A stretch of 64,000 nt of DNA from positions 32,001 to 96,000 of the forward strand of contig JBKHHD010000001.1 in the NCBI GenBank assembly GCA_046539325.1. The letters run 5' to 3'. Of this stretch, positions 15,275 through 57,290 are shown one piece after another (the stretch's first letter is position 1; each line of letters begins with the position of its first letter). Origin of the DNA: Candidatus Aenigmatarchaeota archaeon (GTDB lineage Archaea; Aenigmatarchaeota; Aenigmatarchaeia; PWEA01). Below the pieces are notes generated by a model. It did not search any database. It was not told where the DNA came from and was given only the letters and a program-made list of their open reading frames with translations. Position numbers and translations under genes: made by a program.

Positions 15275-15353
15275 TATAAAGTTTTAAATTCTTCCGGGAA
15301 GAGTTGTATGTGAAAAGTTGGTGTAAATATAAAATAAGTTAAGAGGTGAGAAT

Positions 15354-15857
15354 ATTAGAAAGACTTCTTTTGAAAATCAGAGGGTAGGCATATTTGTCGA
15401 TATTCAAAACATGTACTACTCTGCTAAGAACCTTTACGACAGCAAGGTGGACTACTCGTCCCTTATAGAAGTAGCGACCGACGACAGGGAGCTTATAAGA
15501 GCTCTAGCTTACGTTATCAAGGCAGAGACTCCTGACGAGGAAAACTTCTTTGAGGCTTTAGGCGAGATAGGATTCCAGGTGAAGAGGAAAGACCTCAAGG
15601 AGTTCCGCGGTGGAAACAAGAAGGGGGACTGGGACATGGGCATAGCAATCGACGCTATAAAGATGACAGATAGGATAGATGTGGCTGTGCTCGTTACAGG
15701 CGATGGAGACTTCCGTTCCCTGGTAGAACACCTGAAGTCGGAAGGTGTACAGGTCGAGGTAATGTCCTTTGGAAAGTCGACAGCCGGTGAACTTGTTGAG
15801 TCGGCAGACGTATTCCTTAATATGGACAAGAAAAAGGACCTGTATCTCATGGACTGA
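15354..15857 (+). CDS. NYN/LabA-DUF88 domain nuclease (probable ATT start)
   Basis: In-frame RVGIFVDIQNMYY lies upstream of the track ATG 15411; KGDWDMGIAID, VTGDGDF, GVQVEV; GAGGTGA-4nt-ATT at 15354. Confidence 0.88.
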   Translation: MRKTSFENQRVGIFVDIQNMYYSAKNLYDSKVDYSSLIEVATDDRELIRALAYVIKAETPDEENFFEALGEIGFQVKRKDLKEFRGGNKKGDWDMGIAIDAIKMTDRIDVAVLVTGDGDFRSLVEHLKSEGVQVEVMSFGKSTAGELVESADVFLNMDKKKDLYLMD

Positions 15858-15871
15858 AATTCTGAGCAAAG

Positions 15872-17884
15872 ATGATAACGGGACTGAAGCTTGAGAACTG
15901 GAAGAGTCACTTAGATTCAGAACTCGAATTCGGGAAAGGTACGAACGTTCTTGTAGGTGTAATGGGTTCAGGAAAGAGCTCGATCCTCTCTGCAATTTCT
16001 TTTGCGCTGTTCGGAACCTTCCCTTCACACCGTTCAAGAGAAGTTACCTTGGACGATATAATAATGAACAGACCTCAAAAGAAGGAGGAAGCGAAGGTAG
16101 AGCTTGAATTCGAGATAAAAGGCCAGGAGTTTGAGGTAAAAAGGGTAATAGGTAGAGGAAAGGGTACGAAGGAGGCAAGTATAAGGAAGGACGGTGAGTT
16201 GCTTGATACAGGTCCTTCAAGGGTCACGGAACTGGTTGAAAACTACCTCAAGGTAGACTACAATCTGTTCTCCAGGGCTGTGTACGCGGAGCAAGACGGA
16301 CTGGACAACTTCTTGGAGATAAGGAAAGGCGAGCGTATGAAGAAGATCGACGACCTGTTACAGATAGACAGGTTCGAGGAGTGCAGGAGCAATGTGACCA
16401 CGATCATCAACAGACTGGAAGAAAGGATAGACTCTAAGAGGAAGACTGTAGAAGAGCTGGAGGAACAGGAGGACTTCGGAAAGATAGAAGAGCTGGAGGA
16501 AGAAATAGAGGATATTAAAAAGGAGGTGGAGGAGCTTAGCGAAAAACTGGAAGAACTGGGTGAGAACTATGAAGAAAGAAAAGAAGAGATTAAAGAGCTC
16601 AAAGAGGGTCTTGATGAGATAAAAAAGCTTGAAAACAAAAAAAGCAACATAAAAGGCTCTATTTCAAGCTTAAAGGCGGATATAGAATCTCTAAAGGATG
16701 AATTGGAGCTTTCAGAGGACGAAGTTGAAGAAATGTTAGAAGATAAGAAAAAAGATCTAAAAGAGCTTGAAAAGCGAAAAGAAGAGATTAAAGAAAATTT
16801 AGATGATCTCAAGGATAAGCAAAAGGACAGGAAGATCAAGATAAGAGACCTGCAAAAGAAAATACAGAAAATAAAAGGTGTTGAAGGCGAATGCCCTGTC
16901 TGTGGCAAAGAGCTGGAAGAAGGCCATAAAGAGGATCTCATCGAACAGCGGAGAGAAAAGGTTTCAAAATTAGGCGAAGAGAAAGAAGATTTCGAGAATA
17001 AAATCAATGAAAGGGAAGAAAAACTGGATAAAATCAAGAAGGAAGAGAAGGAGTTAAAGGAGGGAAGAAGGGAGCTCAAAAGGAAGAAGGAGTCTCTCTC
17101 GAAGCTAGAAAATAAGAAAAAGTCTCTGAAGAAGAAGGGCAGGGAGCTTGAAGAAATATCAGAAGAGCTGGAAGAGAAGCAGGAAAAGTTCGACCGAGAA
17201 AAAATAGAAGAGGAGCAGGAAAGGGTAAATGAAATTTCTGGTGAGAGAGAAAGGATAAAGGAGAGGATTGAGAATAAGAAAGACGTTCTTGAGGAAAGAA
17301 AAGAGGAAAGGAAGGAGTTAGAGAAAAGAAAGGAGAGGTTTGAGAAATACAAGGAAGAAATAAAGAGTTCTGAAGACTTGATCGAAGATTTGAAGAAGTT
17401 CAAGAGCGCTTTAAGCTCTACACAGGAGCAGTTGAGAACTAAGTTCATAGAAGCCGTTAACAGTACCCTGACGAAAGTATGGGGCAGCTTATACCCATAC
17501 GATGATTTTTCAGATCTTAGGTTTACTATAAAGGAAGGTGATTACGAGCTCCAGTTCAAGAACAAAGGAAGCTGGCAGTCTGTCGAAGGAATAGCTTCAG
17601 GCGGTGAAAGAACATCTGCCTGTCTTGCTCTTAGAATCGCCTTTGCTCTTGTCCTTGCACCCAATCTAAGGTGGCTTGTCCTGGACGAACCAACCCACAA
17701 CCTAGACAGGCAAGCTGTAAAAGACCTTTCTGAGCTACTGAGGACAAATGTCTCGGAGTTCGTGGACCAGGTATTTTTGATAACACACAATGAAACTATG
17801 GAAAACGCCGCAAGCTCGCACCTCTACAAGCTTAACAGGGATAAGCATAGGGATGAGCCGACAGAAATAAAAGAGATAACTTAG
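15872..17884 (+). CDS. rad50: Rad50 ATPase
   Basis: LENWKSH, GVMGSGKSS, coiled coil with Zn hook CPVCG, SGGE, LDEPT, ITH. Confidence 0.95.
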   Translation: MITGLKLENWKSHLDSELEFGKGTNVLVGVMGSGKSSILSAISFALFGTFPSHRSREVTLDDIIMNRPQKKEEAKVELEFEIKGQEFEVKRVIGRGKGTKEASIRKDGELLDTGPSRVTELVENYLKVDYNLFSRAVYAEQDGLDNFLEIRKGERMKKIDDLLQIDRFEECRSNVTTIINRLEERIDSKRKTVEELEEQEDFGKIEELEEEIEDIKKEVEELSEKLEELGENYEERKEEIKELKEGLDEIKKLENKKSNIKGSISSLKADIESLKDELELSEDEVEEMLEDKKKDLKELEKRKEEIKENLDDLKDKQKDRKIKIRDLQKKIQKIKGVEGECPVCGKELEEGHKEDLIEQRREKVSKLGEEKEDFENKINEREEKLDKIKKEEKELKEGRRELKRKKESLSKLENKKKSLKKKGRELEEISEELEEKQEKFDREKIEEEQERVNEISGERERIKERIENKKDVLEERKEERKELEKRKERFEKYKEEIKSSEDLIEDLKKFKSALSSTQEQLRTKFIEAVNSTLTKVWGSLYPYDDFSDLRFTIKEGDYELQFKNKGSWQSVEGIASGGERTSACLALRIAFALVLAPNLRWLVLDEPTHNLDRQAVKDLSELLRTNVSEFVDQVFLITHNETMENAASSHLYKLNRDKHRDEPTEIKEIT

Positions 17885-39313: not shown

Positions 39314-39358
39314 GCTGACATATTTATTAATCTCAACAACGAATTATTCTAAGGGTGT

Positions 39359-40216
39359 TTGGATATTATAATACGAAACTCAGCCGCTGCTGGACAGTTC
39401 TATCCCAGAAGTTCGAGGGATATAGAATCAATGATAGACAAGTTTTCAAGGAGAGCAGACGTTGAGAAAAGAGACGTATTAGGCGGCGTGGTTCCACATG
39501 CAGGTTACATGTACTGTGGAGAAACACAGGCACACGTTTACGAATCAATCCTCGATGATACAAGCACTTTTGTTATACTCGGACCCAACCACTCAAGCCA
39601 GGGAACTTCGGAAGCGATAATGACGAGCGGGATGTGGAAGACACCTCTTGGTGGTGCAAGGATAGACACTGACCTTGCTAACTCAATACTGCAAAACTCC
39701 GACTATCTCGAGGACGACTATACAGCCCACAACCAGGAGCACTCAATAGAGGTTCAGCTTCCCTGGCTACAAAAAAAGTTCAGAGACTTCAACTTCGTTC
39801 CAATATCTATGAGCAAACATGATCTTAAGAGAGGGCAAGATATAGGAAAGGCCCTGAGGAAAGCTAGAGAAGAAACTTCAGAGAAGTTTGTAGTACTTGC
39901 TTCCTCTGACTTTACACATTTTGGAACTTCTTATGGATACAAGCCTGTGACGGGTGGCATAGGGAAAAAGCTTGACTACATAAAGAAGATAGACACAGAA
40001 GCAGCTTCTGCCGTAGAAAAGCTTTCACCGGAAACGTTCGTCGACACAGTCGAAAGGTACAACGCTACCATATGTGGTGTTGGACCAATTGTATCCATGC
40101 TTTATTATTTAGAAGATATTGCGAAGGGGGGCGATCTCCTCGACTATTCGACTTCGTACGAGGTATCGAAGAACGAGGACTCTATGGTAGGATACTGCGG
40201 AATAGTACTGGAGTGA
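39359..40216 (+). CDS. MEMO1 family protein (AmmeMemoRadiSam protein B-like)
   Basis: AAGQFYP, VPHAGYMYCG, LGPNH, EHSIEVQLPWLQ, ASSDFTHFG, TICG; start TTG 39359 or ATT 39365. Confidence 0.92.
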   Translation: MDIIIRNSAAAGQFYPRSSRDIESMIDKFSRRADVEKRDVLGGVVPHAGYMYCGETQAHVYESILDDTSTFVILGPNHSSQGTSEAIMTSGMWKTPLGGARIDTDLANSILQNSDYLEDDYTAHNQEHSIEVQLPWLQKKFRDFNFVPISMSKHDLKRGQDIGKALRKAREETSEKFVVLASSDFTHFGTSYGYKPVTGGIGKKLDYIKKIDTEAASAVEKLSPETFVDTVERYNATICGVGPIVSMLYYLEDIAKGGDLLDYSTSYEVSKNEDSMVGYCGIVLE

Positions 40217-41897: not shown

Positions 41898-41911
41898 CGA
41901 CTGTAAAAAGC

Positions 41912-42395: not shown

Positions 42396-42406
42396 AATGA
42401 TGCGCT

Positions 42407-42610: not shown

Positions 42611-42617
42611 TGATAAG

Positions 42618-42773: not shown

Positions 42774-42774
42774 T

Positions 42775-44885: not shown

Positions 44886-44889
44886 AATA

Positions 44890-46113
44890 TCATCGTGGTT
44901 TTCTCAAAAGGCTTACTACAGCTGTTCCTCCGCTACCACCAACGTTGTGTGTGATGCCGACTTCGGCTCCAGGGACCTGTCTTTCACCTGCTTCATCCCT
45001 CAGCTGCTCTGTAATCTCCACTGCCTGGGCTATACCGGTAGCTCCTACAGGATGCCCCTTTGCCTTAAGCCCTCCCGAAGTATTTACAAACAGTTCCCCT
45101 CCGTCTGGAAGCTCGTAGGGCACAGGAACTTCTTTATTATTACAGTCTTTCAGGCTCTTCTCCATCCACTTCCACCCTTCCTTCTTTGGATAGAAACCTA
45201 GGTCCTCAAGAGCCAGGACTTCGGCTATGGAAAAACAGTCATGAACCTCGGCAACATCGACGTCCTTCGGTCCAAATCCAGAGGATTCGTAGACGCGCTC
45301 AGCAGCCTTTTTCGTAGAGACAAGGGTAAGTATATCATCCCTTTCGAAGAGTGCTATAGAGTCGTTTACGCCTTGCACGTCCTCCAGTAGTACGTAGTCC
45401 GTTCCTAACTCCTCCGCCTTCCTCACCGTTGTCATTATAAGGGCAGCTGCCCCGTCCGCTATGCCCGAAGAGTTAAGAAGTTTGGTCGGGCTGGCCACAG
45501 GGAAGGAGTTCTTTACCTTTTTGTGTGAGACTTCAAAGGAATACTGCGCCCTTGGGTTCTCTGAGGCGTGCTTATGGCTCTTTACAGCTATATAATCAAA
45601 GTCTTCTTCCTCAGCATCGGTTTCCCTCAAATACCTGTCCTTCAGCATTCCGTAAAGAGCTGGAAATGTAAATCCTACCTCCTTTCCCATATCGGAGGCA
45701 GCGCTCAGTATCTTTGTCGCCTCATCCGTAGACTTATCTGTCATCTTTTCAAAGCCGCCCGCCATAACGATCCTGTCCTCGTCATGGTGGATTCCAGCCA
45801 AAACGTCATTAAAGGAAGCTTCTAATGCAAGACCCCCGGAAGAACATGCTCCTTCTATTCTCCTACCAAGGACCTGCGACTCAGGATTACTATCAAAGAC
45901 TTCGGAAAAAACCTTTGAAGCTGTATGTTCCTGGCCACCAAACATTCCAAGGGACATATTCCCAAGGAAAAACTTCTCTATGTCATTCTTTTTTATTCCC
46001 GCATCCTCAAGAGCCTCTAGACCTGCTTCCTCAACAAGTTCAATCCAAGAACTGTCCCACAGTTCCCCAAACTCAGTATGGCCTACTCCAATGATAGCTA
46101 CCTTCTCTTTCAT
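44890..46113 (-). CDS. Acetyl-CoA acetyltransferase (archaeal thiolase)
   Basis: EGACSSGG, DGAAA, AEVHDCF, NTSGGLKAKGHPVGATG, HNVGGSG. Confidence 0.95.
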   Translation of the reverse strand: MKEKVAIIGVGHTEFGELWDSSWIELVEEAGLEALEDAGIKKNDIEKFFLGNMSLGMFGGQEHTASKVFSEVFDSNPESQVLGRRIEGACSSGGLALEASFNDVLAGIHHDEDRIVMAGGFEKMTDKSTDEATKILSAASDMGKEVGFTFPALYGMLKDRYLRETDAEEEDFDYIAVKSHKHASENPRAQYSFEVSHKKVKNSFPVASPTKLLNSSGIADGAAALIMTTVRKAEELGTDYVLLEDVQGVNDSIALFERDDILTLVSTKKAAERVYESSGFGPKDVDVAEVHDCFSIAEVLALEDLGFYPKKEGWKWMEKSLKDCNNKEVPVPYELPDGGELFVNTSGGLKAKGHPVGATGIAQAVEITEQLRDEAGERQVPGAEVGITHNVGGSGGTAVVSLLRKPR

Positions 46114-46189
46114 TAGAAGATATTAGTATTTCCTAGGCTTAAAAAACTTTCGACAAAAGGAACATGATGCATAGCACATTTGTCGATTA

Positions 46190-47431
46190 CTACTTTACAA
46201 TTCCGTAACCAATCAGACGCCATTTGTTTTCAATCTGCCGTGAGATGGCTATTCTCTCGCCCAGGTCAGTACATATTGGAAGCTTAAGTTTGATCTCTGC
46301 TTCCTCGTTGCCGTCAACAACTCTTGCAGAAGTAACTACTCCGGCAGTCTTTGACGTACCTGCTGTAAGCATAAGTGGTTCGTTTGTCTTGACCTCCTCC
46401 ACTTCCCTCTGGCCCTCAACTCCGGCGACCTCATCAAAGGTATGTATCTCAAGGGTAAGCTCCTCTATCAGGTCAGGAAGCTCGCCAGGGTATCCAACAA
46501 CGGAACCAGAGAAGTTGTCGCTTTTCGTAAAGGAAGGATCGAGCTTCGTCTGAACTCCCAGAAGTCCACCAGGCCCTGCCTTATCCAAGCTCTTGCCGAC
46601 CTTCTCCATGGCCACTATTTCAGTTTTTATCGGATGCATTCCATCGTCCTTATGGATCCCAGGCCTTATTTCTATCTCGTCCCCAACACTTAGCTCTCCT
46701 TGTATGATACTCCCGCCTATTACACCGCCCTTAATGTCATCTATAGTCGTGCCTGGCTTGTTCACATCAAAGGATCTGGCTGCCATAATTCTAGGGCTAG
46801 CCTCAGGATCCCTATCGGGTGTAGGTATCCCATCCTGTATAGCTTGAAGTACTGCATCGACGTTAACCCTCTGAAGAGCAGATACAGGTATTATAGGAGC
46901 GTCCTCAGCGACGGTTCCTTCGACAAACTCCTTTATTTCCTCATAGCTTTCCCTGGCCCTCTCTTCAGAAACTCTGTCTACCTTGTTCTGAACTATAACA
47001 ATATTGTCTATACCTGCTATATCCAAGGTTTTGAGATGCTCCGCTGTCTGAGGCTGGGGGCATGGCTCGTCGGCAGATATAACAAAGAGACAGCCGTCCA
47101 TTAGGGCAGCTCCTGAAAGAACAGTTCCCATAAGGGTCTTGTGGCCAGGTACATCCACCAGAGATATGGTTCTTTGTGGCTCCGTGTCCTCGAAACATGT
47201 CGGGCATTTGTCGGTGGTGCAGTAACAGCTTGGTTCATCACAGTCCTGGCACTTGTATATAGTAGCGTCTGCATAACCAAGCCTTATAGTTATTCCTCTC
47301 TTTATCTCCTCTGAATGTGTGTCAGCCCACTTACCGGAAATAGCCTGCGCTAGTGTACTCTTCCCGTGGTCCACGTGGCCCATTAGACCTATATTTACCT
47401 TCGGTATGAGCCTTTCATCTGGATCTTCCAT
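46190..47431 (-). CDS. eif2g: Translation initiation factor 2 gamma subunit
   Basis: NIGLMGHVDHGKS, EIKRGITIRLGYA, DVPGH, PQPQTAEH, RSFDVNKPG, WRLIGYG. Confidence 0.97.
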   Translation of the reverse strand: MEDPDERLIPKVNIGLMGHVDHGKSTLAQAISGKWADTHSEEIKRGITIRLGYADATIYKCQDCDEPSCYCTTDKCPTCFEDTEPQRTISLVDVPGHKTLMGTVLSGAALMDGCLFVISADEPCPQPQTAEHLKTLDIAGIDNIVIVQNKVDRVSEERARESYEEIKEFVEGTVAEDAPIIPVSALQRVNVDAVLQAIQDGIPTPDRDPEASPRIMAARSFDVNKPGTTIDDIKGGVIGGSIIQGELSVGDEIEIRPGIHKDDGMHPIKTEIVAMEKVGKSLDKAGPGGLLGVQTKLDPSFTKSDNFSGSVVGYPGELPDLIEELTLEIHTFDEVAGVEGQREVEEVKTNEPLMLTAGTSKTAGVVTSARVVDGNEEAEIKLKLPICTDLGERIAISRQIENKWRLIGYGIVK

Positions 47432-47443
47432 GAATCATCCCAT

Positions 47444-47851
47444 TTATTCTTCCTCTTCTTCCGATCCTTCTTCGCTTTCCTCTGAGCCGAGAAGGTCGTC
47501 TATGTCCTCAGCATCGCTATCCCTTTCGACCACCTTCGCATTGATCTGAACTATATCCTCAGAAATTACTTCTCCTCTAACTGATTTTCTTCTCTTCACA
47601 CCGCTGTCCTCGGGCCTGTAACCAGGACCTTCCCCCATGAGGACTCTTCTTCTTCCGCTTCCGTGAACTCCCTTCCTCATTGGAAATCCTTCCTCGTCGC
47701 TTCCTCCTGTGACTTCAAGAATGTATCCTTCTAAGCCTACTAAAGAACCGTTGAACTCTTCGCCTAGCTCGGTTCCTATAAGCGGTGTGGCTTCCTTCTC
47801 CACCTGCCAGGATTTGCCTTCTTTAGGATCGGAAATGCTTATCTTGAAAAT
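47444..47851 (-). CDS. rps6e: 30S ribosomal protein S6e (probable ATT start; track ATG 47890 is the alternative)
   Basis: FKISISDP, VTGGSDEEGFPMR, RRKSVRG.VIS.DIVQIN; GAGGTGA-5nt-ATT TTC AAG. Confidence 0.93.
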   Translation of the reverse strand: MFKISISDPKEGKSWQVEKEATPLIGTELGEEFNGSLVGLEGYILEVTGGSDEEGFPMRKGVHGSGRRRVLMGEGPGYRPEDSGVKRRKSVRGEVISEDIVQINAKVVERDSDAEDIDDLLGSEESEEGSEEEEE

Positions 47852-47856
47852 ATCGA

Positions 47857-47918
47857 TCACCTCGCCCAGATCAGTTTCATCTCCGGGCATTCATGAAAGA
47901 AATAGCAAGCTATTTAAA
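47857..47918 (-). promoter_or_regulatory. rps6e promoter and K-loop hairpin abutting the SD
   Basis: TTTAAATA 47918-11; GCCCGGA-GAU-GA-AACU-GA-UCUGGGC (47888-64) immediately followed by GAGGUGA. Confidence 0.65.
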
Positions 47919-47939
47919 GATTACGGCTTGTGAAGCCCT

Positions 47940-48086
47940 TTACAATAGTTTCTTATCCTCGTATCTATTTTCTTCAGTTAAATCCTCCTTTTTATGTTCC
48001 TTGCTGCCACCAACAAAAGAAAGGACTTCAGAATCCATTCCATTTTGAAGATATACTTCATGTCTACCTGGTTTTGAATCAGCCAT
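47940..48086 (-). CDS. Putative 48-aa hypothetical protein
   Basis: AGTGA-taac-ATG; MADSKPGRHEVYLQNGMDSEVLSFVGGSKEHKKEDLTEENRYEDKKLL*; fills the gap between infB and the rps6e promoter. Confidence 0.45.
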   Translation of the reverse strand: MADSKPGRHEVYLQNGMDSEVLSFVGGSKEHKKEDLTEENRYEDKKLL

Positions 48087-48129
48087 GTTATCACTGTATA
48101 ATTACAACTCATTACTTAAATAGTTTTCC

Positions 48130-49863
48130 CTAACCGTACTTCTCATCGATAACTTCCTCCAGAACTTTCTTCTCACCTTTCGAGAGCATATCCTCAAGCT
48201 CCTCAAGCTTCCTTATATCTCTGTCTGAAAGAAGGTTGTAAAGTACGTCACCTTCCTCGACCTGTCTTCCAACCGTTACCTTGCTTATAGAGACAGCTAC
48301 CCTGTCCCCGCCTTCAGCCATCTCTACAGGAACGTTTTCGTCCTGTATCTCTCTTATAGTTCCTACTCTCTTACCTTCCTTCACGAGATCGTAACCAGGC
48401 TTTATAACACCATCTATGACATCACATCCAACCACCGCAGGCTTCCTTTGCCTGAAGACGTAGCCAGGAAGCAAACGAATCTTTCCTGGACGTGTCACCT
48501 CTTCCAGCTTTTCCCTTCTTATCTCCTCCTGCTTCTTTTCCTTCCATTCCTCATACTCCTCGACCAACCTGTAGACGACTGAACTGGAAAATATCTTTAC
48601 GTCCTCTTCACACATCTCAGCAGCCTCGGTAACGCCTACGTTGAAGGCAAATATTCCTCTCTGAAGAGGATCTTTGACGGAGCTAGCTTCCATAACGTCT
48701 TTACGCGTGACGTCACCTATTGACGCTTTCGTTATAGGAATTTCCTTCTCCTCGAGCATGTTTATGATTCCTTCAAGGCTGCCCAACGTATCAGCCTTTA
48801 CTACAATACCTTCGCCTTCGGACTCCATCTCGATGTCCTCAACCTCTTCCTTCAGTTCCCCAAGAGCTTTGTCCGTATCGCCCTCAGGTCCAAGACTCTG
48901 AAGAGGTGAGCCAGCCACAACCTTGTCAAGACCAGGTCCGGATATCTTTACACCGGAAGCAGCCTTTACCTCCTCGACGTTCTTGAACTTCTTCTCCGTC
49001 CTGAGCTCCTCGAGCTCCCTTGGTTTGAGAAGAGCCTTAATCTTTGAGACAACAGGATTTTCGCCGCCAATGGCAAGCTGGTCACCTTTTCTCATAACAC
49101 CTTCGTACAGTATTACGTCCAGGGTGGTTCCCAGGCCTTTAGACTCCTTGACCTCCAAAACTGTTCCCTTACCAACATCTGACGTAAGTTCCAGTTCATC
49201 TGAGAGGTATTTCTGAGAAAGTCCTATAAGGACCGCTAGGAGATCCGGAACCCCTTCGCCGGTAAGCCCAGAAACAGGAACTATAGCAACCTTGTCTCTG
49301 AAATCATCGACCCTGTCAAACCTGTCCGCAGTGACGTTCATCTCGGAGAGGTCACCCATAAGCTCGTATACCTTTTCGTCGAGTTTGTTTCTCACCTTCT
49401 CCCTTTGTTTCTTATATGTATTAGAAAAACAGGCTCCTTCAACAGAGTTCCAACCACGTATCTTGTCCGTTTTAGTAGCAGCGACGACAAAGGGCGTATT
49501 AAACTCCTTCAAGAACTTTAGAGACTCCTTTGTCTGCGGCTTAAAGCCTTCGTTGACGTCTACCACTAGAACAGCAAGATCGGAGACGGACCCGCCTCTC
49601 TTTCTGAGAGTAGTAAAGGCCTCGTGGCCTGGGGTATCTATAAACAGAAGGCCAGGCACTTTAATGTCCTCCGTCGTCAGAAGACCGCCGCACAAGCTCT
49701 TTACAACGTCAAGGGTTATCTCAGTAGCACCTATATGCTGTGTTATTCCTCCCGCCTCACCTGAAGCTACCTTCGTTTCTCTTATACGGTCGAGTATAGT
49801 CGTCTTTCCGTGATCCACGTGGCCTAGTACCGATATTATCGGCTGCCTTCTTTTTTCCGACAT
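48130..49863 (-). CDS. infB: Translation initiation factor aIF5B (IF-2)
   Basis: RQPIISVLGHVDHGKT, GEAGGITQHIGAT, DTPGHEAF, KADTLGSLE; GGTGT-5nt-ATG 49863. Confidence 0.97.
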   Translation of the reverse strand: MSEKRRQPIISVLGHVDHGKTTILDRIRETKVASGEAGGITQHIGATEITLDVVKSLCGGLLTTEDIKVPGLLFIDTPGHEAFTTLRKRGGSVSDLAVLVVDVNEGFKPQTKESLKFLKEFNTPFVVAATKTDKIRGWNSVEGACFSNTYKKQREKVRNKLDEKVYELMGDLSEMNVTADRFDRVDDFRDKVAIVPVSGLTGEGVPDLLAVLIGLSQKYLSDELELTSDVGKGTVLEVKESKGLGTTLDVILYEGVMRKGDQLAIGGENPVVSKIKALLKPRELEELRTEKKFKNVEEVKAASGVKISGPGLDKVVAGSPLQSLGPEGDTDKALGELKEEVEDIEMESEGEGIVVKADTLGSLEGIINMLEEKEIPITKASIGDVTRKDVMEASSVKDPLQRGIFAFNVGVTEAAEMCEEDVKIFSSSVVYRLVEEYEEWKEKKQEEIRREKLEEVTRPGKIRLLPGYVFRQRKPAVVGCDVIDGVIKPGYDLVKEGKRVGTIREIQDENVPVEMAEGGDRVAVSISKVTVGRQVEEGDVLYNLLSDRDIRKLEELEDMLSKGEKKVLEEVIDEKYG

Positions 49864-50154
49864 TTCCGACACCTTTTGCATATATAGTGCTAGCGGGAGT
49901 CATTCCTACACTATAATTCCGCCGAAGATATTTAAAATAGTTAGGAGGGCTCAGATATGAGGCCAAGGAAAGCTCCACTCGTAAGCCATCTGTTAATGAA
50001 AGGCCACGGTATAGATATATTTATCTCGTCAAAAAACGAGGATACATTTATAAAATCGTCGAACAATGCTTTAGCCAAGGATTGGTGAGGAACTTTTAAA
50101 GAAATTAAAAACTTTTAAATTGTGCAGAACAATATTAGCTGGAGGCAGTTAACA

Positions 50155-50691
50155 ATGAAACAGATAAGGATACATGGACGTGGCGGCCAGGGCTCTGTTA
50201 CTATGGCTTCCATGATGGCAGAAGCAGCTTTTGAATCAGGTAAAGAAGCCCAAGGATTTCCATCCTTCGGTGTAGAAAGATTGGGCGCACCCATAGAAGC
50301 CTACGTCCGAATAGACAACAAAGAAATAACGGACAGAAGCCAGATCTACAATCCTGACTTCGTGATAGTCCAGGACTCCACGCTCATAGAGCTCGTGGAA
50401 GTTGAAAAGGGTCTAAAAGATGATGGAATGATACTTATAAATACTTCAGAGGACGCCGAAAACATAGATCTGGACACAGAAGCAGAAATCGTAACAGTGG
50501 ACGCCACAGAAATAGCACTCGAGCACCTTGGAAAGCCGATTATGAATACTGCACTTGCTGGAGCCTTTGCAAAGGCGACAGGCTTGATAGAAGAGGAAAG
50601 TATGGCAAAGGTTATAAGGGAAACTTTCGAAGGAGAGATAGGTCAAAAGAACGTCAAAGCTATGGAAGAAGCTTACGGGGTTGTACAATGA
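50155..50691 (+). CDS. porC: Pyruvate/2-oxoacid:ferredoxin oxidoreductase gamma subunit
   Basis: IRIHGRGGQG.VT, FPSFGVERLGAP, VDATEIA, NTALAGAF. Confidence 0.95.
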   Translation: MKQIRIHGRGGQGSVTMASMMAEAAFESGKEAQGFPSFGVERLGAPIEAYVRIDNKEITDRSQIYNPDFVIVQDSTLIELVEVEKGLKDDGMILINTSEDAENIDLDTEAEIVTVDATEIALEHLGKPIMNTALAGAFAKATGLIEEESMAKVIRETFEGEIGQKNVKAMEEAYGVVQ

Positions 50692-50972
50692 CAAAGGATC
50701 CATACGAAGATCTGGAGATAAAGACTGGCGCGGCAACGGAGCCCAGGGGCACACTTGTAAATAAAACAGGAAGCTGGAGGTCTCAAAGGCCTGTAATAGA
50801 CCATGAGAAATGTGTGGCATGCGGGAACTGTGAGAAGTTCTGTCCTGATATGGCAGCAAAGGAAACGGAAGAAGGCAGGTTTGAAATTGACCTGGACTTC
50901 TGTAAGGGCTGTGGAATATGTGCCGAAGAATGTCCTGTAAACGCTATTGAAATGGAGAGGGAGGAGAAATAA
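50688..50972 (+). CDS. porD: POR delta subunit (2x[4Fe-4S])
   Basis: KTGSWRSQRPVID..KCVACGNCEKFCPD...DFCKGCGICAEECP. Confidence 0.95.
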   Translation: MTKDPYEDLEIKTGAATEPRGTLVNKTGSWRSQRPVIDHEKCVACGNCEKFCPDMAAKETEEGRFEIDLDFCKGCGICAEECPVNAIEMEREEK

Positions 50973-50973
50973 T

Positions 50974-52191
50974 ATGGCAGAAATGATGACAGGATACGAC
51001 GCTGTTGCAGAGGCCGTGAAGGCCTGTAACCCAGACGTTATACCTGCATATCCTATAACGCCACAAACGGATATCGTAGAAAAAATAAGCGAAATGGTCG
51101 CAGACGGCGAGCTTACAAGCGAATACGTGAGAGTGGACAGTGAGTTCAACGCTGCTTCCACCGCACTAGGTGCGAGCGCTGCAGGAGCAAGAGTTTTCAC
51201 CGCGACCTGCTCACAGGGACTTAAGCTTATGAGCGAGCCTATCTTTAGCGCCTCAGGGATGAGGTTGCCTCTTGTTCTCGCTGTAGCCAACAGAAGTCTC
51301 TCAGCACCTCTAAGCATATGGGGAGACCATACTGATACATTTGCAGAAAGGGATGGTGGAATGATTCAGTTTTACGCAGAAGATGTACAGGAAGCCATGG
51401 ACAACATAGCGATGGCCTACCGCGTCGCAGAGGACAAGGATATTTCACTGCCTGCTCTTTCATGCCTGGATGGATTTATACTAACGCACGTGCAGGAGAA
51501 GGTCGAACCATTTACTGAGGAGGAATTAAAGGAGTTCCTTCCTGAAAGGGACCCGGTCCATACCTTAGACCCTTCGGATCCGACGACGATGGGGGCCTAT
51601 GCAAGACCTGAGCACTGGACCGAGACGAGGTACGAAGTACATGAAACTGTGAAAAGATCCAAAGACAAGATCGGCGAAGCTGTAAAGGAGTTCGCAAACA
51701 TATTCGGAAGAGAGTACGGCCTAGAGCACAACGGACTTCTGGAGACGTACAGAACGGAGGATGCAGACGTTATATTAGTCGCTCTGGGAAGCGTCTGTGG
51801 AACTATGAGATATATCGTGGACGAGTACAGGGACAAGGGCCAAAAGGTCGGTATGGTAAGGCCAAGAGTTTACAGGCCTTTCCCTGTTGAAGAGATAAGC
51901 AAGGCCCTAGAGGAAGCTGAAGCTATAGCAGTCTTAGAGAAGGACGTTTCGCTCGGCTATCAGGGTGGTCTAGCAATAGATATAAAGTCCGCTCTCTACT
52001 CCAACGGAAGCAAGATACCAATACTCAACTTCATCGTAGGATTGGCTGGAAGGGACGTGACAAAGGACAACCTCAGGAACATTGTAGAGCAAACGAAGGA
52101 ACTACGTGGCAAGGGCCCTGAGGACATCAGTGAGGAGGAAAGGTGGGAACCTTTGAGGACTGAAATTTTATCAGGTGATAAGAATGACTGA
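50974..52191 (+). CDS. porA: POR alpha subunit
   Basis: AYPITPQT, SEFNA, TATCSQGL, NRSLSAPLSIWGDH, DGFILTH. Confidence 0.95.
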   Translation: MAEMMTGYDAVAEAVKACNPDVIPAYPITPQTDIVEKISEMVADGELTSEYVRVDSEFNAASTALGASAAGARVFTATCSQGLKLMSEPIFSASGMRLPLVLAVANRSLSAPLSIWGDHTDTFAERDGGMIQFYAEDVQEAMDNIAMAYRVAEDKDISLPALSCLDGFILTHVQEKVEPFTEEELKEFLPERDPVHTLDPSDPTTMGAYARPEHWTETRYEVHETVKRSKDKIGEAVKEFANIFGREYGLEHNGLLETYRTEDADVILVALGSVCGTMRYIVDEYRDKGQKVGMVRPRVYRPFPVEEISKALEEAEAIAVLEKDVSLGYQGGLAIDIKSALYSNGSKIPILNFIVGLAGRDVTKDNLRNIVEQTKELRGKGPEDISEEERWEPLRTEILSGDKND

Positions 52192-53110
52192 AGACAAGTT
52201 CAAACACGAAGAAGACCTGTTCTGCTCCGGGCATAGAGCATGTCCAGGTTGTGGAGCCGCGCTTACCTCAAAGCTTGTAACAGAAGCAACAGGTTCCCAG
52301 ACTATACTCTCGATGCCTACCGGATGTATGGAAGTTACGACAACACCTTACCCGGAAAGCGCCTGGGGAATAAGCTGGATGCACAATATATTTGAGAACT
52401 CCGCCGCAATTGCAGGGGGAATAGAAACCGCTTACAAGGCCTTTGACAAAAGGAACAAGGAAGGTTACATGGATCACGACGACGTGAACTTTGTAGTTCT
52501 AGCCGGTGATGGAGCCACATTTGATATAGGTATAAGGAGCTTAAGCGGAATGATGGAAAGGGGTCACGACGTTCTCTACATATGCTACGACAACGAAGCT
52601 TACATGAATACAGGGATTCAGAGGAGCAGTAGTACACCGATCGGTGCAGCCACGACAACGAGTCCAGCAGGAAAGGAAAGCCATGGTGAAAACATTCATA
52701 AGAAGGATATGCCTAGTATAGCTGCTGCCCATGGACTTGAGTACGTAGCTACAGCCAGTATCGCTTACCCCGAGGACTTCCAAAAGAAGGTGAAGAAGGC
52801 TCTGGAAATAGAAGGTCCGAAGTATATTCAGGTCTTCTCTCCTTGCCCACGTGGCTGGAGACATGATGCAAAGAACAGTGTAAAGATAGCAAGGCTTGCG
52901 GTGGAAACAGGAATGTACCCGATCTACGAAATGGAGAACGGACAGATAACCAACGTCAAGAAGATCAAGGATCGGAAACCTGTCGAGGAATATTTGAAGA
53001 CACAAGGCAGATTCAAGCATCTCTTTGAGCAGGAAGGTGGGGAAGAAGTAATTGAGGAGCTTCAGCAAATTGCTGACGCAAACGCTGAAGAGCTAGGGAT
53101 CGATAAGTAA
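52184..53110 (+). CDS. porB: POR beta subunit
   Basis: GHRACPGCG, TGCMEV, GDGATFDIG, YDNEAYMNTGIQRS, SPCPRGW. Confidence 0.95.
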   Translation: MTEDKFKHEEDLFCSGHRACPGCGAALTSKLVTEATGSQTILSMPTGCMEVTTTPYPESAWGISWMHNIFENSAAIAGGIETAYKAFDKRNKEGYMDHDDVNFVVLAGDGATFDIGIRSLSGMMERGHDVLYICYDNEAYMNTGIQRSSSTPIGAATTTSPAGKESHGENIHKKDMPSIAAAHGLEYVATASIAYPEDFQKKVKKALEIEGPKYIQVFSPCPRGWRHDAKNSVKIARLAVETGMYPIYEMENGQITNVKKIKDRKPVEEYLKTQGRFKHLFEQEGGEEVIEELQQIADANAEELGIDK

Positions 53111-54028
53111 TCACTCTAATATTTCTATATCGTCTGTTTTTCCATCTCCGTCCCTATCCAAACCCTTTATAACCCTGCAAAACTCCTCTCCTCGTTGATA
53201 ATCATCGAAAACTCTATCGGACCGATGTATTGCTCCGAGGATACACGTCTTTGTTCCTTCGAAGTGAAGCCCAGAAAGCAGTATTCTCTGATAGCCGTTG
53301 TTTTCTATCTTTGCTACAAGGCCCAGATTCTCATCGGAATACGTATTTCCGGTTTTATCCGAAACTATCTTCCAGGTCTTTTCCCAGTCGAAGCGAACGC
53401 TCAACTCCTCGTTTAGCTCCCTTGAAACAGTGTTTGTTATAGGACCCCCTATCAGTATTAGGTTTCTATCCAAGGCTTCCTCTGCTTTAACTTCGGTGTC
53501 CAGTTTCACTACAAATCTCTCTTCCAGGTTGCAAAATCCACCTAAAAAAATTCCAAGCTGAACCGCATAATGTCCGTCTCGGGAAGCAGTCATAAAGGGA
53601 CCGTGCTCCTTTGGTGAGCCAACAACTATCGAACCACTGAAGCTTTCACCGGAAACAAACTCAGAAAAGAAGTCCAGGGCTCCTTCAGGAACATCAGGCT
53701 TTCTTCCTCTGCTTTCCCTCCAGTTGTCGTTTATCTCAAATCCGACAGAATCCGTAGTAGGACGGTAGAACTTGCAGAGAGCACCACCCCTTCTCTCCTC
53801 CTTTGCAACTTCAACAAGACCGGCTTCCTTTAACTTTTCGATATGATAGTAAACCTTCTGTTCATGGACACCTAAATCCTCTGCAATCTTTTTGGGATAA
53901 GTCCCCTTTTCGTCTATTGACCTAAGGATTTCAAGTGTTTTTTCACTTACAGCTCCTGCATTGTTAGAATCCAAGAGCCTGATGTCCTTTGAATAAAAGT
54001 TGCCGTTATCTTCTCTGGTAATCTTCAT
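53111..54028 (-). CDS. ArsR-like HTH regulator with uncharacterised C-terminal domain
   Basis: YPKKIAEDLGVHEQKVYYHIEKLKEAGLV; C-terminal IVVGSP.EHGP, NLILIGGPITN; divergent from the nucleotidyltransferase-glmS operon. Confidence 0.75.
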   Translation of the reverse strand: MKITREDNGNFYSKDIRLLDSNNAGAVSEKTLEILRSIDEKGTYPKKIAEDLGVHEQKVYYHIEKLKEAGLVEVAKEERRGGALCKFYRPTTDSVGFEINDNWRESRGRKPDVPEGALDFFSEFVSGESFSGSIVVGSPKEHGPFMTASRDGHYAVQLGIFLGGFCNLEERFVVKLDTEVKAEEALDRNLILIGGPITNTVSRELNEELSVRFDWEKTWKIVSDKTGNTYSDENLGLVAKIENNGYQRILLSGLHFEGTKTCILGAIHRSDRVFDDYQRGEEFCRVIKGLDRDGDGKTDDIEILE

Positions 54029-54128
54029 AGATATAAACTGTGGTTCTTATTATAAATATTTTTACAATGAGAAGGATTCTATTTTAATTATTTTTATATA
54101 ATTCTAAGACCAAAATAATGCAGGTAAC

Positions 54129-54848
54129 ATGGATGCTCTTGTACTTGCTGCGGGTAAAGGAACGAGGCTACGTCCTTTAACAGATCAGAAGCCTAAGGTT
54201 CTTGTCGAGGTCAAGGGAAAGTCTCTGATAGAGCACATCATCGATGATCTCAAAGAGATTGGAGCAAAACAGATTACAGTCGTAAAGGGTTATATGGGTG
54301 AAATGCTGGAGGAAAGGCTTGATAAGTACGAAAACATTGATTTCATACAACAGGAAAAGCAGCTCGGGACAGCACATGCCATAGGACTATCATCGTTCAG
54401 CTCTCCTTTCCTAACAGTAAACGGAGACGTCTTCATGCATAGGAGGAATCTCAGGAATCTTGTCTCCGCCTTCGGAGAAGATACGGAAGCTGTCATTGGA
54501 AGTATGAGGGTAGAAAATCCTGAGGAGTTCGGCGTTCTCGAGGTTAAAGGAAGGGAGGTCAAGGATATAATCGAGAAGCCTGACGAACCCCCTTCCGATA
54601 TAATAAACACCGGAACATACGTCTTCTCGCCGGAGATATACAAATACATAAAAAGAACAGAGGTTTCTGAAAGAGGAGAATACGAGATAACCGATTCCCT
54701 TCGGATGATGCTAAAGGATGGAAAACCAGTGAGCCATGCCAAATTCAGTGATTACTGGATAGATGTGGGAAGGCATGAGGATTTGGCGAGAGCAAAAAAC
54801 ATAGAGACAAAGGACAAAACAAAGAGGTCGGTAGTATCTGTGGGATAA
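54129..54848 (+). CDS. Sugar-phosphate nucleotidyltransferase (GlmU N-terminal/RmlA-like, no acetyltransferase domain)
   Basis: LAAGKGTRLRPLT..KPK, QLGTAHA, NGD, IIEKP, SERGEYEITD, WIDVG. Confidence 0.92.
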   Translation: MDALVLAAGKGTRLRPLTDQKPKVLVEVKGKSLIEHIIDDLKEIGAKQITVVKGYMGEMLEERLDKYENIDFIQQEKQLGTAHAIGLSSFSSPFLTVNGDVFMHRRNLRNLVSAFGEDTEAVIGSMRVENPEEFGVLEVKGREVKDIIEKPDEPPSDIINTGTYVFSPEIYKYIKRTEVSERGEYEITDSLRMMLKDGKPVSHAKFSDYWIDVGRHEDLARAKNIETKDKTKRSVVSVG

Positions 54849-56569
54849 CAGGGTACTGCGGACAAGGTAAGACTCCAGAAGTACTGCTCGATTGTTTGGA
54901 AAGGTTGGAGTACAGGGGATACGACTCTGCAGGCCTTGCATTTCTCAATGATTCAGGCATACAGGTAAGCAAGGCAACAGGAACCCTTGATGAACTTGAT
55001 TTTGATTCAGAGGATATAGATGGAGAAATAAATACAGGCATCGGCCATACAAGATGGGCCACACATGGAGATGTTTCAAAAGAAAACGCCCATCCACACA
55101 GCTCTTGCAAAGGAAGGTTTGTATTAGCACACAACGGGATAATAGAGAACTGGAAAGAGCTGAAGGAACAGCTTAACAACCACACCTTTGAATCAGAAAC
55201 CGACTCCGAGGCTGCTGTCCATTACATAGAGGAGAAAGCAGATAAATTTACAACGGAAAGGGCTATTCAGGATTTTATGGAAGAGGTAGAAGGCAGCTAC
55301 GCTATAACCCTCCTTGATTCGAAACAAGAAAAGTTATACGTTATGAAAAGCGGCTCACCCATTGTGATAGGTATCAACGAAGAAGAAGTTTTTGTCGCAT
55401 CCGACGTCTACGCTTTTTCACCGTACACAGACAAAGTAATGTTTCTCAAGGACGAGGAATATGCGGTTGTAGAGGAGGGAAATGTTACAGTAAAGGACAA
55501 GGAAGGCAAGGAAGTTGAAAGGGGCCTCAAAACTGTACAATGGGAACAGGAAAGTTCCGAAAAGGAGGGTTTCGAACACTATATGCACAAGGAGATAAAG
55601 GAAATTCCAAATGCCCTGAAAAAACTACAGAACTCCTTGGATACGACACAAAATGAGAGGCTTAAGAAGTTCGCTGAAAAAATAAAGGATCATGGAAAGG
55701 TTGTCTTCGCCGCCTCAGGGACCAGCTACCATGCTTCTCTACTGGGTGTCTATTTTCTTCAGAAAGCAGGTGTAGAAGCACGGGCATTTTTAGCCTCGGA
55801 GCTCGGGAACTATGACAGGGTTGACGACGATACTCTTCTCATTCCGGTATCACAGTCCGGTGAGACAAAGGACGTGCTTGAAGCAATGAAATACGCAAGA
55901 AACAAAGGAGCGGAAATAGCCTCTATAACAAACGTGCCCCATTCCACGGTCGAGAGGAAGTCAGATATAAACCTTAGGATAAAGTCTGGGCAAGAGGTCT
56001 GTGTTGCCGCTACGAAAACATTTACAAACCAGGTCTACGCGCTAATGAGGATAGCTGAAGAGATGGACGGACTGAGCTTTGAAAGAAACATAGAAAGTTC
56101 TCTTAGAGAGGTCATCGAAAGAAATGAAGAACCAATAAAGGAGCTCGCAGAGGAACTTAAGGAAGAGGAAGACATATACATCATCGGCAAGGGTGAGAGC
56201 TTTCCTGTCGCGAGGGAGATATCGCTGAAACTAAAGGAAATAGCCTACATACACGCCGAAGGAATGTTGGCAGGTGGATTGAAACATGGAACTTTAGCGC
56301 TTATCGAGGAAGGAACTCCCGTTATTTCTCTAATACCAGAAAAGGATTCGGACATGATTTCAAACGTCAAGGAGGCAGAATCACGGGAAGCAAGGACGAT
56401 AAGGATATCACCCCACTACGGCGACTTCTACCTACCTGAGACAGAAAACGGCGATTTCTCCTTTTTCGCGGCAGCAATAGGTTTCTTGCTTACATACTGG
56501 ATAGCCAGGGAGAAAGGACTGCCTATAGACAAGCCGAGGAACCTCGCTAAATCAGTCACAGTCCAGTAG
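54836..56569 (+). CDS. glmS: Glutamine--fructose-6-phosphate aminotransferase (ATC start)
   Basis: ATC TGT GGG ATA = (M)CGITGY; RLEYRGYDSAG, GHTRWATHG, HNGIIEN, SQSGET, KHGTLAL, PRNLAKSVT. Confidence 0.95.
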   Translation: MCGITGYCGQGKTPEVLLDCLERLEYRGYDSAGLAFLNDSGIQVSKATGTLDELDFDSEDIDGEINTGIGHTRWATHGDVSKENAHPHSSCKGRFVLAHNGIIENWKELKEQLNNHTFESETDSEAAVHYIEEKADKFTTERAIQDFMEEVEGSYAITLLDSKQEKLYVMKSGSPIVIGINEEEVFVASDVYAFSPYTDKVMFLKDEEYAVVEEGNVTVKDKEGKEVERGLKTVQWEQESSEKEGFEHYMHKEIKEIPNALKKLQNSLDTTQNERLKKFAEKIKDHGKVVFAASGTSYHASLLGVYFLQKAGVEARAFLASELGNYDRVDDDTLLIPVSQSGETKDVLEAMKYARNKGAEIASITNVPHSTVERKSDINLRIKSGQEVCVAATKTFTNQVYALMRIAEEMDGLSFERNIESSLREVIERNEEPIKELAEELKEEEDIYIIGKGESFPVAREISLKLKEIAYIHAEGMLAGGLKHGTLALIEEGTPVISLIPEKDSDMISNVKEAESREARTIRISPHYGDFYLPETENGDFSFFAAAIGFLLTYWIAREKGLPIDKPRNLAKSVTVQ

Positions 56570-56607
56570 TTTCCAAGCTTTTAAAGATTCTGTACAAAAG
56601 TAGGAAT

Positions 56608-56886
56608 ATGTCAGACAAAGAAAAGTTAGGATATCATAAAGGCGCCATGGAAGCTCTGATCAATGAGAAGATAGAGCTCTCACGTCTCCTGAAGATAGTC
56701 AACTCACTGATCCAAAGACACTCCAAGTCTCTCGAGGAGATGGGCGTCGATGTCGAAAAGTTCATAGAAAACGTTCAAAAGAAAAGGGAAAAAAGCGCAA
56801 GAAAGGCGACCGAGAAAAGCAAGAGATCCTCACAGGACAAAGGAGAGTTTGATCTGTCGGACGAAGAACTTCCTGAAGAGTTCTAG
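56608..56886 (+). CDS. Hypothetical protein
   Basis: 92 aa, GYHKGAMEALINEK..., helical, acidic tail; first gene of the run leading to rpoE'. Confidence 0.7.
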   Translation: MSDKEKLGYHKGAMEALINEKIELSRLLKIVNSLIQRHSKSLEEMGVDVEKFIENVQKKREKSARKATEKSKRSSQDKGEFDLSDEELPEEF

Positions 56887-56894
56887 GTGGAAAA

Positions 56895-57290
56895 ATCACA
56901 ACAGTAATACTTGATGCCAACTTCGTCATGGCTCCTGGCGAGGTTGGTGTGGACGTCTTTGAAGAGATAGGCGGGATGTTGAACGGAAATTACAATCTTG
57001 TGATGCCCGAACCGGTGAAAAATGAAGTCCGGAAGCTTTCAAGGGGAAGGGGTGAAGAGGCAAAGGCCGCAAGAATAGCTCTTGAGCTTGTCGAGAGGCA
57101 AGGTGTTGAGATCGTAGAAACAAGTAGAAAAGACGGGGACGCTTCAATAGTCGAAGCTGCAAGGAAATTTGAAAAGCCTGTTATAGCAACCAACGACAAG
57201 AATCTGAGGAACCAGTTCAGACAGAGGTCAATTCCAACAGTTTACGTAAGAACAGGAGACCACGTTGAGATGGAAGGTGATATAAGATGA
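56895..57290 (+). CDS. PIN-domain protein (Fcf1/Utp24-like; probable ATC start)
   Basis: In-frame TTVILDANFVM lies upstream of the track ATG 56928; PEPVKNE, DASIV, IATNDKNLR; AGGTGG-4nt-ATC. Confidence 0.85.
   Translation: MTTVILDANFVMAPGEVGVDVFEEIGGMLNGNYNLVMPEPVKNEVRKLSRGRGEEAKAARIALELVERQGVEIVETSRKDGDASIVEAARKFEKPVIATNDKNLRNQFRQRSIPTVYVRTGDHVEMEGDIR

Follow-up and report, generated by a model that had tools for sequence, protein, structure and literature searches.

The stretch of DNA analysed here (the window; 64,000 nucleotides (nt), bases 32001-96000 of contig 1) belongs to a Candidatus Aenigmatarchaeota archaeon whose genome (G000) comprises 715 kb in 10 contigs at ~45% G+C. Our subject is the start codon of five window genes, which encode an NYN-domain protein, a Memo-family protein, ribosomal protein S6e (rps6e), the aminotransferase GlmS and a PIN-domain protein: inspection of the sites, of domain matches and of orthologues confirmed that each of them, as read from the DNA, has a putative ATT or ATC start codon behind a Shine-Dalgarno (SD) element of the GGTG type at a spacing of 5-7 nt (Table 1).

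Start sites in the window

The 16S rRNA of G000 ends in ...GGATCACCTCC, so the expected SD is GGAGGTGATCC. ATG codons peak 4-6 nt after GGTGA, which is 5-7 nt after GGTG (counts of 70, 52 and 35 vs. a background of ~11-35), and the ATT/ATC cases, with spacers of 5, 6 or 7 nt after GGTG, fall in the range used by canonical ATG. Our own caller of open reading frames (ORFs) returned 74 ORFs in the window; five have an SD-spaced ATT or ATC start, and in 25 an ATG or GTG is the first SD-supported candidate.

In NYN, PIN and glmS, as in the aIF1 gene discussed below, no canonical start codon stands between the upstream stop and the conserved N-terminal residues. For NYN, an in-frame TAA at 15330 is followed by no ATG, GTG or TTG until ATG 15411; a start there would cut the NYN domain, because the PF01936 match begins at residue 10, and an NCBI record gives the same 167-amino-acid (aa) protein with Met at the ATT codon. 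For PIN, the in-frame stop is a TGA at 56874 and the next ATG lies at 56928, from which the protein would lose the first conserved Asp of VILDANF; the NCBI record has PIN as 127 aa (56907-57290; M-L-D-A-N-F) from an ATA four codons past the ATC, and this ATA has no SD spacing of its own. For glmS, a stop lies in frame upstream, the next canonical codon falls within the conserved domain, and ATC 54836 is followed by TGT GGG ATA ACA GGG TAC (CGITGY). The Cys of GlmS is the required N-terminal nucleophile; residue 1 of the predicted protein aligns with Met1 of the solved GlmS 4amv, and residue 2 (Cys) aligns with residue 1 of the mature chain 1jxa.

The other two genes are less clear-cut when G000 is viewed by itself: rps6e has an in-frame GTG within its SD and an in-frame ATG upstream at 47890, and Memo has a TTG two codons before ATT 39365. 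As canonical codons stand in frame upstream, the start of rps6e is decided only by its orthologues.

For glmS and PIN only, ribosomes might conceivably reinitiate right after termination on the gene upstream, with less strict choice of the start codon. The upstream gene's stop follows the glmS ATC by 10 nt, the SD of glmS is a weak one, and the PIN ATC lies 8 nt past an upstream TAG; an E. coli study has reportedly dealt with reinitiation at non-canonical codons. PIN, however, keeps a proper SD at proper spacing in nine genomes, and such coupling is not a general rule, because NYN, thermosome and aIF1 have intergenic leaders with strong SDs. We consider termination-reinitiation unlikely even for these two genes.

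At 39365, 47851, 54836 and 56895, the contigs of two sequencing runs, which span 39000-57300 at a depth of 50-73, carry only the assembly letter, and no variant is listed there; the PIN ATC (56895) is present in a third run too, in a contig of low depth. The runs checked may be the source of the assembly, and the comparison took in these four of the five sites. This possible common origin, together with the restriction of the glmS ATC to G000, is what would speak for consensus errors of a metagenome or for pseudogenes that have lost their ATG. On the other hand, every gene is an open, full-length frame whose domains are preserved; seven species assembled separately show these codons again; and glmS itself is full-length, open and the top one of four first-look candidates in G000 (one match at E<=0.001). 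We regard artefact or decay as extremely improbable. A minor variant is present in both deep runs at 47889-47892 (depth ~8-10 of 72-82; three letters changed); the ATG that stands in frame ahead of the rps6e ATT is lost in it, and the contigs break at 47859-47888.

Much of what a preliminary description had proposed from the sequence of the window is borne out by these results: ATG does peak 4-6 nt after GGTGA; the ATT/ATC starts behind SDs in NYN, rps6e, glmS and PIN are upheld by reading, domains and orthologues (for glmS, the relatives have canonical starts); in-frame stops do exclude canonical starts in glmS, NYN and PIN; five cases in 74 ORFs match its estimate of four to six in about 75 genes; and the four sites covered by reads show no ATG in two runs. 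Its account of rps6e has to be corrected in one respect, as the ATT start gains support from orthologues but upstream in-frame canonical codons exist. Of its two weaker cases, 39365 stands on orthologue support and 2504 falls: the frame that begins with the minus-strand ATC after AGGTGAT at that site is just 34 codons long and has no counterpart by tblastn in the sister genome G004. A plus-strand reading near 2504 falls as well; the neighbouring gene has a signal-peptide-like start at ATG ~2621.

Table 1 Putative ATT/ATC start sites and coding sequences (CDS) in the window (window positions) and further cases elsewhere in G000 (contig:position)
Feature	Position	Strand	Remarks
NYN start: SD GAGGTGA, 4-nt spacer, ATT 15354	15343..15356	+	read directly; identical in 8/8 genus genomes
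NYN-domain protein CDS from ATT, 167 aa	15354..15857	+	PF01936 positions 1-144/145 = residues 10-157
Memo-family start: SD-like GGGTG, 7-nt spacer, ATT 39365	39353..39367	+	orthologues
Memo-like protein CDS from ATT, 283 aa	39365..40216	+	PF01875 positions 3-269/269 = residues 7-281
rps6e start: SD GAGGTGAT, 6-nt spacer, ATT 47851	47849..47863	-	orthologues
Ribosomal protein S6e CDS from ATT, 135 aa	47444..47851	-	PF01092 (Ribosomal_S6e) positions 1-123/125 = residues 2-120
glmS start: weak SD GAGGT, 7-nt spacer, ATC 54836	54824..54838	+	overlaps upstream gene end (stop 54846-54848)
GlmS (glutamine-fructose-6-phosphate aminotransferase) CDS from ATC, 577 aa	54836..56569	+	GATase + SIS domains; full-length E. 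coli GlmS alignment from residue 1
PIN start: SD AGGTGG, 4-nt spacer, ATC 56895	56885..56897	+	8 nt past upstream gene stop
PIN_9-domain protein CDS from ATC, 131 aa	56895..57290	+	PF18477 positions 1-114/116 = residues 4-119
Thermosome	C6:7092		ATT 6 nt after perfect GGAGGTGAT in 8/8 genus genomes; ATG in G008, G009, G011, G012
ABC transporter	C4:14481		ATT in G000 and G004
KH protein	C8:17415		ATC in G000 and G004
157-aa protein	C6:49216		ATT in G000 and G004
PilB-like ATPase	C3:68790		ATT in G000; ATG at same codon in G004
Cytidylyltransferase	C5:7397		ATT in G000, ATC in G004; in-frame GTG in SD
Membrane protein	C6:3624		ATT in G000; orthologue not found in G004

Conservation and genome-wide frequency

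The relatives compared were seven other species of the genus (G001-G007), one genome of the same family (G008) and others of the order or class; the class relatives carry the label Aenigmatarchaeota (DPANN group). The NYN site, AGAGGTGA(G/A)AAT ATT, is identical in all eight genus genomes, with an in-frame TAA just upstream of the ATT in G001, G002 and G003, and the more distant G010 has ATG. PIN starts with ATC in seven and ATT in one of the eight, with ATC in G008 and with ATG in the other 11 relatives compared. In rps6e, seven of the eight have ATT and the eighth, G001, an ATG together with one additional codon; ATG stands at this same position in G008 and is found in other relatives. Memo has ATT in four and ATC in four of the genus genomes, ATG in G008 and G012, and TTG in G011. 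Two of these orthologues resolve the ambiguity of rps6e and Memo in G000: the rps6e gene of G007 keeps its ATT although a 5-nt spacer shifts the GTG of the SD out of frame; in G002 Memo, an in-frame TAG stands two codons upstream, between the SD and the ATC. Across the genus, the thermosome gene has ATT and aIF1 has a near-cognate start in eight of eight genomes. For glmS, ATC occurs only in G000, with ATG in 25, GTG in two and TTG in one of 28 relatives; the putative ATC start of glmS is a recent change private to G000, not a conserved feature.

Throughout the genus, four of the five genes keep one start codon, vs. 8 of 43 internal all-Ile columns (the rows left out of this control are the ATG-bearing rps6e of G001 and two thermosome fragments of G005). 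Canonical starts thus stand at the homologous codon elsewhere, and the near-cognate codon is conserved beyond neutral expectation.

Over the whole genome, window included, putative ATT/ATC starts behind an SD were found in ~13 of ~800 G000 genes: those of known family encode aIF1, thermosome, S6e, NYN, PIN, Memo, GlmS, an ABC transporter, a KH protein, a PilB-like ATPase and a cytidylyltransferase, and the remaining two encode proteins without known family. The Cpn60_TCP1 domain of the thermosome begins at residue 40, and the next ATG of its gene is codon 51; promoter positions upstream of it, inspected by eye only, are not conserved. The exchange also runs in the other direction, as one G004 gene has ATC where G000 has ATG.

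To count such sites genome-wide, we took 803 G000 ORFs from our own crude codon-usage caller and scored every in-frame codon that follows the upstream stop and precedes the first canonical start for a GGTG 5-7 nt upstream (SD-spaced). In G000, 11 of 332 ATT and ATC codons are SD-spaced vs. 55 of the 7389 remaining non-start codons (odds ratio 4.6; p 1e-4 by Fisher's test); the separate counts are 8/198 for ATT, 3/134 for ATC, 106/585 for ATG, 16/137 for TTG and 5/122 for GTG. In G004 (whole 633 kb), the excess is 17/366 vs. 63/7154 (odds ratio 5.5, p 2e-7), and in both genomes SD-spaced ATT and ATC codons outnumber SD-spaced GTG (11 vs. 5 and 17 vs. 3). No enrichment of ATA or CTG was found in G000 (3/236 and 3/91) or G004 (3/239 and 0/94). 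G022, a genome of the same class that uses the same SD (ATG 33/343) and whose aIF1 starts with GTG, served as a control and has no ATT/ATC enrichment (1/244 vs. 18/4180; odds ratio 0.95, p 0.66) in the 400,000 of 548,858 bases of the one contig scanned. In G028 (400,000 of 600,453 bases of one contig), the counts are 2/193 vs. 17/2791; this absence of signal says little, because G028 hardly uses the SD (ATG with GGTG 6/319). The criterion misses rps6e, glmS and Memo. A mapping of first canonical starts over 537 reciprocal-best pairs of G000 and G004 proved too noisy because of spurious upstream TTG and GTG codons, and only hand-checked switches between ATG and ATT/ATC (ATY) were used.

The suggestion of the preliminary description that ATT/ATC starts behind SDs are a trait of the lineage, whether through relaxed start selection or as a control layer, agrees with these data: the starts are conserved in eight species of the genus, distant relatives have ATG, and enrichment is seen in two genus genomes and not in G022. 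The excess of SD-spaced ATH codons that it anticipated holds for ATT and ATC in G000 and G004, but not for ATA, and its glmS start holds as an ATC in G000 but not as a conserved feature. It had also foreseen misannotation by standard gene callers, and truncated proteins are indeed on record for aIF1 (93 aa), NYN (148 aa) and PIN (120 aa).

Several further observations concern codons near SDs. A second PilB-like ATPase gene of G000, C1:14419 (+), has an ATA 6 nt after GGGTGAT, as does its G004 orthologue; no other ATA candidate in the genus is conserved, and the SD of this one contains a GTG in frame. Five of the eight SD-spaced ATT candidates of G000 (C6:7092, C4:14481, C3:68790, C6:3624 and C5:7397) have a Pro codon (CCA/CCG) in second place, vs. 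8 of 106 SD-spaced ATG starts; the second codon of the thermosome gene varies among relatives (CCA, TCA, ACA). On contig C4 of G022, three genes at offsets 98046(+), 126499(-) and 385263(-) have in common the leader GGTGGTATC CTG AGT ATG, in which an SD-spaced CTG stands two codons ahead of the ATG. G021, a genome of another family of the same order, has near-cognate starts in aIF1 (ATC), in a gene with ATT before I-P-I-R-C-I-S-C-G and in two further genes with ATC; the three cases other than aIF1 lie at offsets 717722 and 191793 on the minus strand and 632571 on the plus strand, and from the N-terminal sequences we take them to be RpoN-like (ATT), MetRS-like (ATC) and SHMT-like (ATC). G028 has an RpoH-like ATT candidate.

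The start of the aIF1 gene

The gene for initiation factor aIF1 (C2:78061) reads GAGGTGAAAATAA ATC GCT AAC TGT, and a stop codon directly precedes the ATC, as in six of the eight genus genomes. The next ATG lies 8 codons downstream, within the zinc knuckle, and a start at the next ATG or TTG would remove two Cys of the knuckle C-x2-C-G-L-P-x3-C-V-C; the alignment with M. jannaschii aIF1 begins at its first Cys. According to PMC6237735, the motif C-x2-C-G-L-P-x3-C-phi-C occurs in 64% of 744 archaeal aIF1 sequences.

The start of aIF1 is near-cognate in all 22 species genomes of the order (ATC in 17, ATT in one, ATA in four), ~7 nt after the SD core, and in 18 of the 22 no canonical codon is present between the upstream stop and the first Cys. 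Eight class-level outgroups start with ATG (5), GTG (2) or TTG/CTG (1). We sampled a further 60 class genomes by family from ~80 others with an aIF1 match. The zinc knuckle is missing in two of the 60; among the 58 that bear it, seven have no canonical codon before the knuckle (CTG in five, ATA in two), and ~9 more are probable cases, with an SD-spaced CTG, ATA or ATC and only a misplaced in-frame GTG or TTG. Among 80 named loci, which overlap the set of 60 genomes, 10 are strict cases, and all seven of these with a phylum label are Aenigmatarchaeota; no strict case occurs among those of the 80 that bear the label Woesearchaeota, Pacearchaeota or Nanohalo-. In family f18 (G037, G061), the knuckle cysteines of aIF1 are lost, and G-L-P-K-E/D-L-G-V-W-E takes the place of C-G-L-P-x3-C-V-C. 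Judged by this distribution, aIF1 is the oldest of the putative near-cognate cases, present order-wide and also in further families of the class, and the variety of weak codons at its start suggests selection for weakness rather than for a particular codon. Throughout a clade, the aIF1 gene begins at the type of site that aIF1 disfavours in S. solfataricus.

The protein sequence also differs in the order. Inspection of aIF1 and aIF1A had been proposed in the preliminary description; aIF1A starts with ATG, and aIF1 has, besides its near-cognate start, an Asn specific to the clade, in the motif T-I-V-E-N-V, order-wide. Gly occupies that position in 67 of 67 parsed relatives with canonical starts, in five lineages with CTG or ATA starts and in the three a/eIF1 of solved structure that were compared (human eIF1, chain 5zcy and M. 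jannaschii aIF1). The apparent Gly-to-Asn change counts as one event on the tree, and we treat it only as a lead.

Initiation machinery and proposed mechanism

The initiator tRNA gene of G000 is ordinary, with A1:U72, three G:C pairs in the anticodon stem and a CAU anticodon. A pattern search found no second initiator-type anticodon arm, within a tRNA detection that is incomplete, as many genes have introns; a GAU tRNA piece has a stem of the elongator type and hence does not qualify as a non-CAU initiator. Introns occur in most G000 tRNA genes, often long or at unusual places; ARAGORN reports 11 tRNA genes without and 30 with its intron option, Infernal reports 19, and several anticodon calls of intron-containing genes look unreliable. 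The 16S gene (contig C2, ~55,905-56,765, outside the window) has an insertion of ~850 nt near its 3' end, after which the mature 3' end resumes at ~56,765; an ORF within the insertion, by eye presumably homing endonuclease-like, is interrupted by two in-frame TAA codons.

From sequence comparison, ATT and ATC are very likely real start codons in this lineage, used in near-cognate initiation by the ordinary CAU initiator tRNA. The main alternative is that the true starts are canonical (the GTG in the SD, the TTG before 39365, ATG 47890 or downstream ATGs) and that the ATT and ATC are plain Ile codons. Gene callers have indeed picked downstream or upstream ATGs, and at 6-nt spacers the GTG within GGTG is in frame, as in thermosome (8/8), rps6e (most genomes), the PilB-like ATPase and the cytidylyltransferase; for thermosome, this GTG may be the start. 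However, for NYN, PIN, aIF1, glmS, the KH protein and the ABC transporter, the spacer measures 4, 5 or 7 nt or a stop excludes a canonical start; in rps6e, the ATT of G007 has the GTG out of frame and G008 has its ATG exactly there; in G002 Memo, a TAG separates the SD from the ATC; a GTG inside the SD would be without an SD of its own; and downstream ATGs truncate conserved domains. We judge hidden canonical starts to be quite improbable.

Besides these in-frame GTG codons, several points weigh against our reading of the starts and of their origin. It is a case built on DNA, in which the protein N-termini are predicted ones. A canonical in-frame upstream codon is present for rps6e, Memo and thermosome in G000 itself. 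Counts across the genomes do not represent independent events, given their relatedness; the enrichment statistics come from a crude ORF caller of our own, and one of the eight G000 ATT hits directly precedes an ATG. In G021, whose aIF1 starts with ATC, enrichment is weak (7/473 vs. 68/9302 in 800,000 of 832,879 bases; odds ratio 2.0, p 0.07). An ATG or GTG immediately precedes the first Cys of aIF1 in four of the 22 genomes of the order (G011, G015, G019, G020), though at 16 nt from the SD core. The loop-1 residues important in P. abyssi (R, Y and K of R-x-Y-G-K) are intact, and aIF1 accordingly does not look disabled. Finally, thermosome and S6e are normally abundant, and a weak start is odd for them unless AUU initiation is efficient.

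This last point could be met by a dedicated decoding device, either a modified C34 with which the initiator tRNA could read all of AUH, or the Gly-to-Asn change as a cause of lowered discrimination by aIF1. Formyl-cytidine is known to widen reading in mitochondrial tRNA-Met. Such a device would suit the high efficiency suggested by the ATT starts of essential, abundant thermosome and S6e, the free exchange of ATT and ATC in the genus with ATA unenriched, and the presence of Asn in all aIF1 of the order and Gly elsewhere. The tRNA gene, by contrast, is ordinary, and modifications are not readable from DNA; lineages with CTG or ATA aIF1 starts retain Gly; and the association of Asn with AUH starts has no statistical weight, because it is a single event on the tree. 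A special device of this kind seems unlikely to us.

Returning to near-cognate initiation by the ordinary tRNA, we propose the following sequence of events. An SD of the GGAGGTGAT type would pair strongly with the 16S 3' end and so place the mRNA on the small subunit, where the CAU initiator tRNA would accept AUU or AUC 5-7 nt downstream with a third-position mismatch; Met would therefore be expected where relatives have ATG. According to PMC4705826 and PMC8211752, aIF1 of S. solfataricus discriminates against AUU. If this also applies in the present lineage, aIF1 would throttle its own AUC-started synthesis, limiting itself through a weak codon like IF3 at the AUU of infC and eIF1 at its poor-context AUG; the autoregulatory nature of the infC AUU and of the eIF1 context is described in PMC4705826 and PMC6237735. 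By this analogy, aIF1 is probably autoregulated. Self-limited aIF1 would hold fidelity at a point where a strong SD makes AUY an adequate start, so that ATG-to-ATY changes elsewhere may have been tolerated and retained. A stepwise spread under such a permissive state would agree with the way in which the cases nest by age: aIF1 in the order; PIN in the family; thermosome, S6e, NYN and Memo in the genus; glmS and the PilB-like ATPase in the species. We consider it quite possible, and put forward tentatively, that aIF1 control through an AUC, AUU, AUA or CUG start is class-wide, and that in one order, with permissive fidelity and perhaps with the Gly-to-Asn change, AUY starts spread stepwise.

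The ATT and ATC starts, with that of aIF1 among them, point to an undescribed way of tuning protein synthesis. A full-text search of incomplete coverage and without supplements, which included PMC7531240, found neither a near-cognate start on an archaeal aIF1 nor routine archaeal AUU/AUC starts, and in the part available of a 2020 review, only AUG, GUG and UUG are named. Annotation appears to have met such starts without describing them, because the NCBI record has the NYN Met at ATT and other callers truncate. If our reading is true, self-sensing of a fidelity factor through a weak start extends from bacteria and eukaryotes to the third domain, with the homologue of eIF1; and archaeal initiation can run essential, abundant genes from AUU and AUC, which bears on the roles of the SD and aIF1 in start selection. 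Callers restricted to ATG, GTG and TTG would truncate or misplace genes, with loss of half of the aIF1 zinc knuckle and of the catalytic Asp of NYN and PIN, and truncated calls would distort domain surveys and metabolic reconstructions of DPANN genomes.

The proposed mode of initiation resembles that at the AUU of bacterial pcnB and the low-level initiation measured at near-cognate codons in E. coli, in which an SD-led AUU or AUC is read by the initiator tRNA. Bacterial AUU starts are known from rare single genes and have very low efficiency. Unlike those isolated starts, the ATT and ATC hits here exceed the GTG hits. Mitochondria, with their reduced genome, routinely start at AUU, AUC and AUA, with a modified tRNA-Met and mostly leaderless mRNAs; unlike them, the present lineage has strong SDs and a normal-looking initiator tRNA gene. 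Among archaea, ribosome profiling of Haloferax volcanii (PMC7261190) offers a parallel in that ~30% of putative alternative sites are near-cognate; those, however, are alternative or extra sites set aside as possible false positives, not the sole conserved starts of core genes.

The closest likenesses are to the two autoregulated fidelity factors. As in bacterial infC, which encodes IF3, the fidelity factor's own gene begins at a near-cognate codon conserved over a large clade (PMC4705826). The weak codon varies in identity, being AUC, AUU, AUA or CUG here; AUU is the classical codon of infC. The differences are that aIF1 is unrelated in fold to IF3, according to the same source, and its autoregulation here is proposed by analogy; and that near-cognate starts have spread here to about a dozen other genes, including those of a chaperonin and a ribosomal protein. 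With eukaryotic eIF1, the likeness extends to homology: aIF1 is its homologue, and both would sense their own level through a disfavoured start (PMC4705826 and PMC6237735). In eukaryotes, however, this start is an AUG in a weak Kozak context met during scanning, whereas here it would be a non-AUG codon positioned by the SD.

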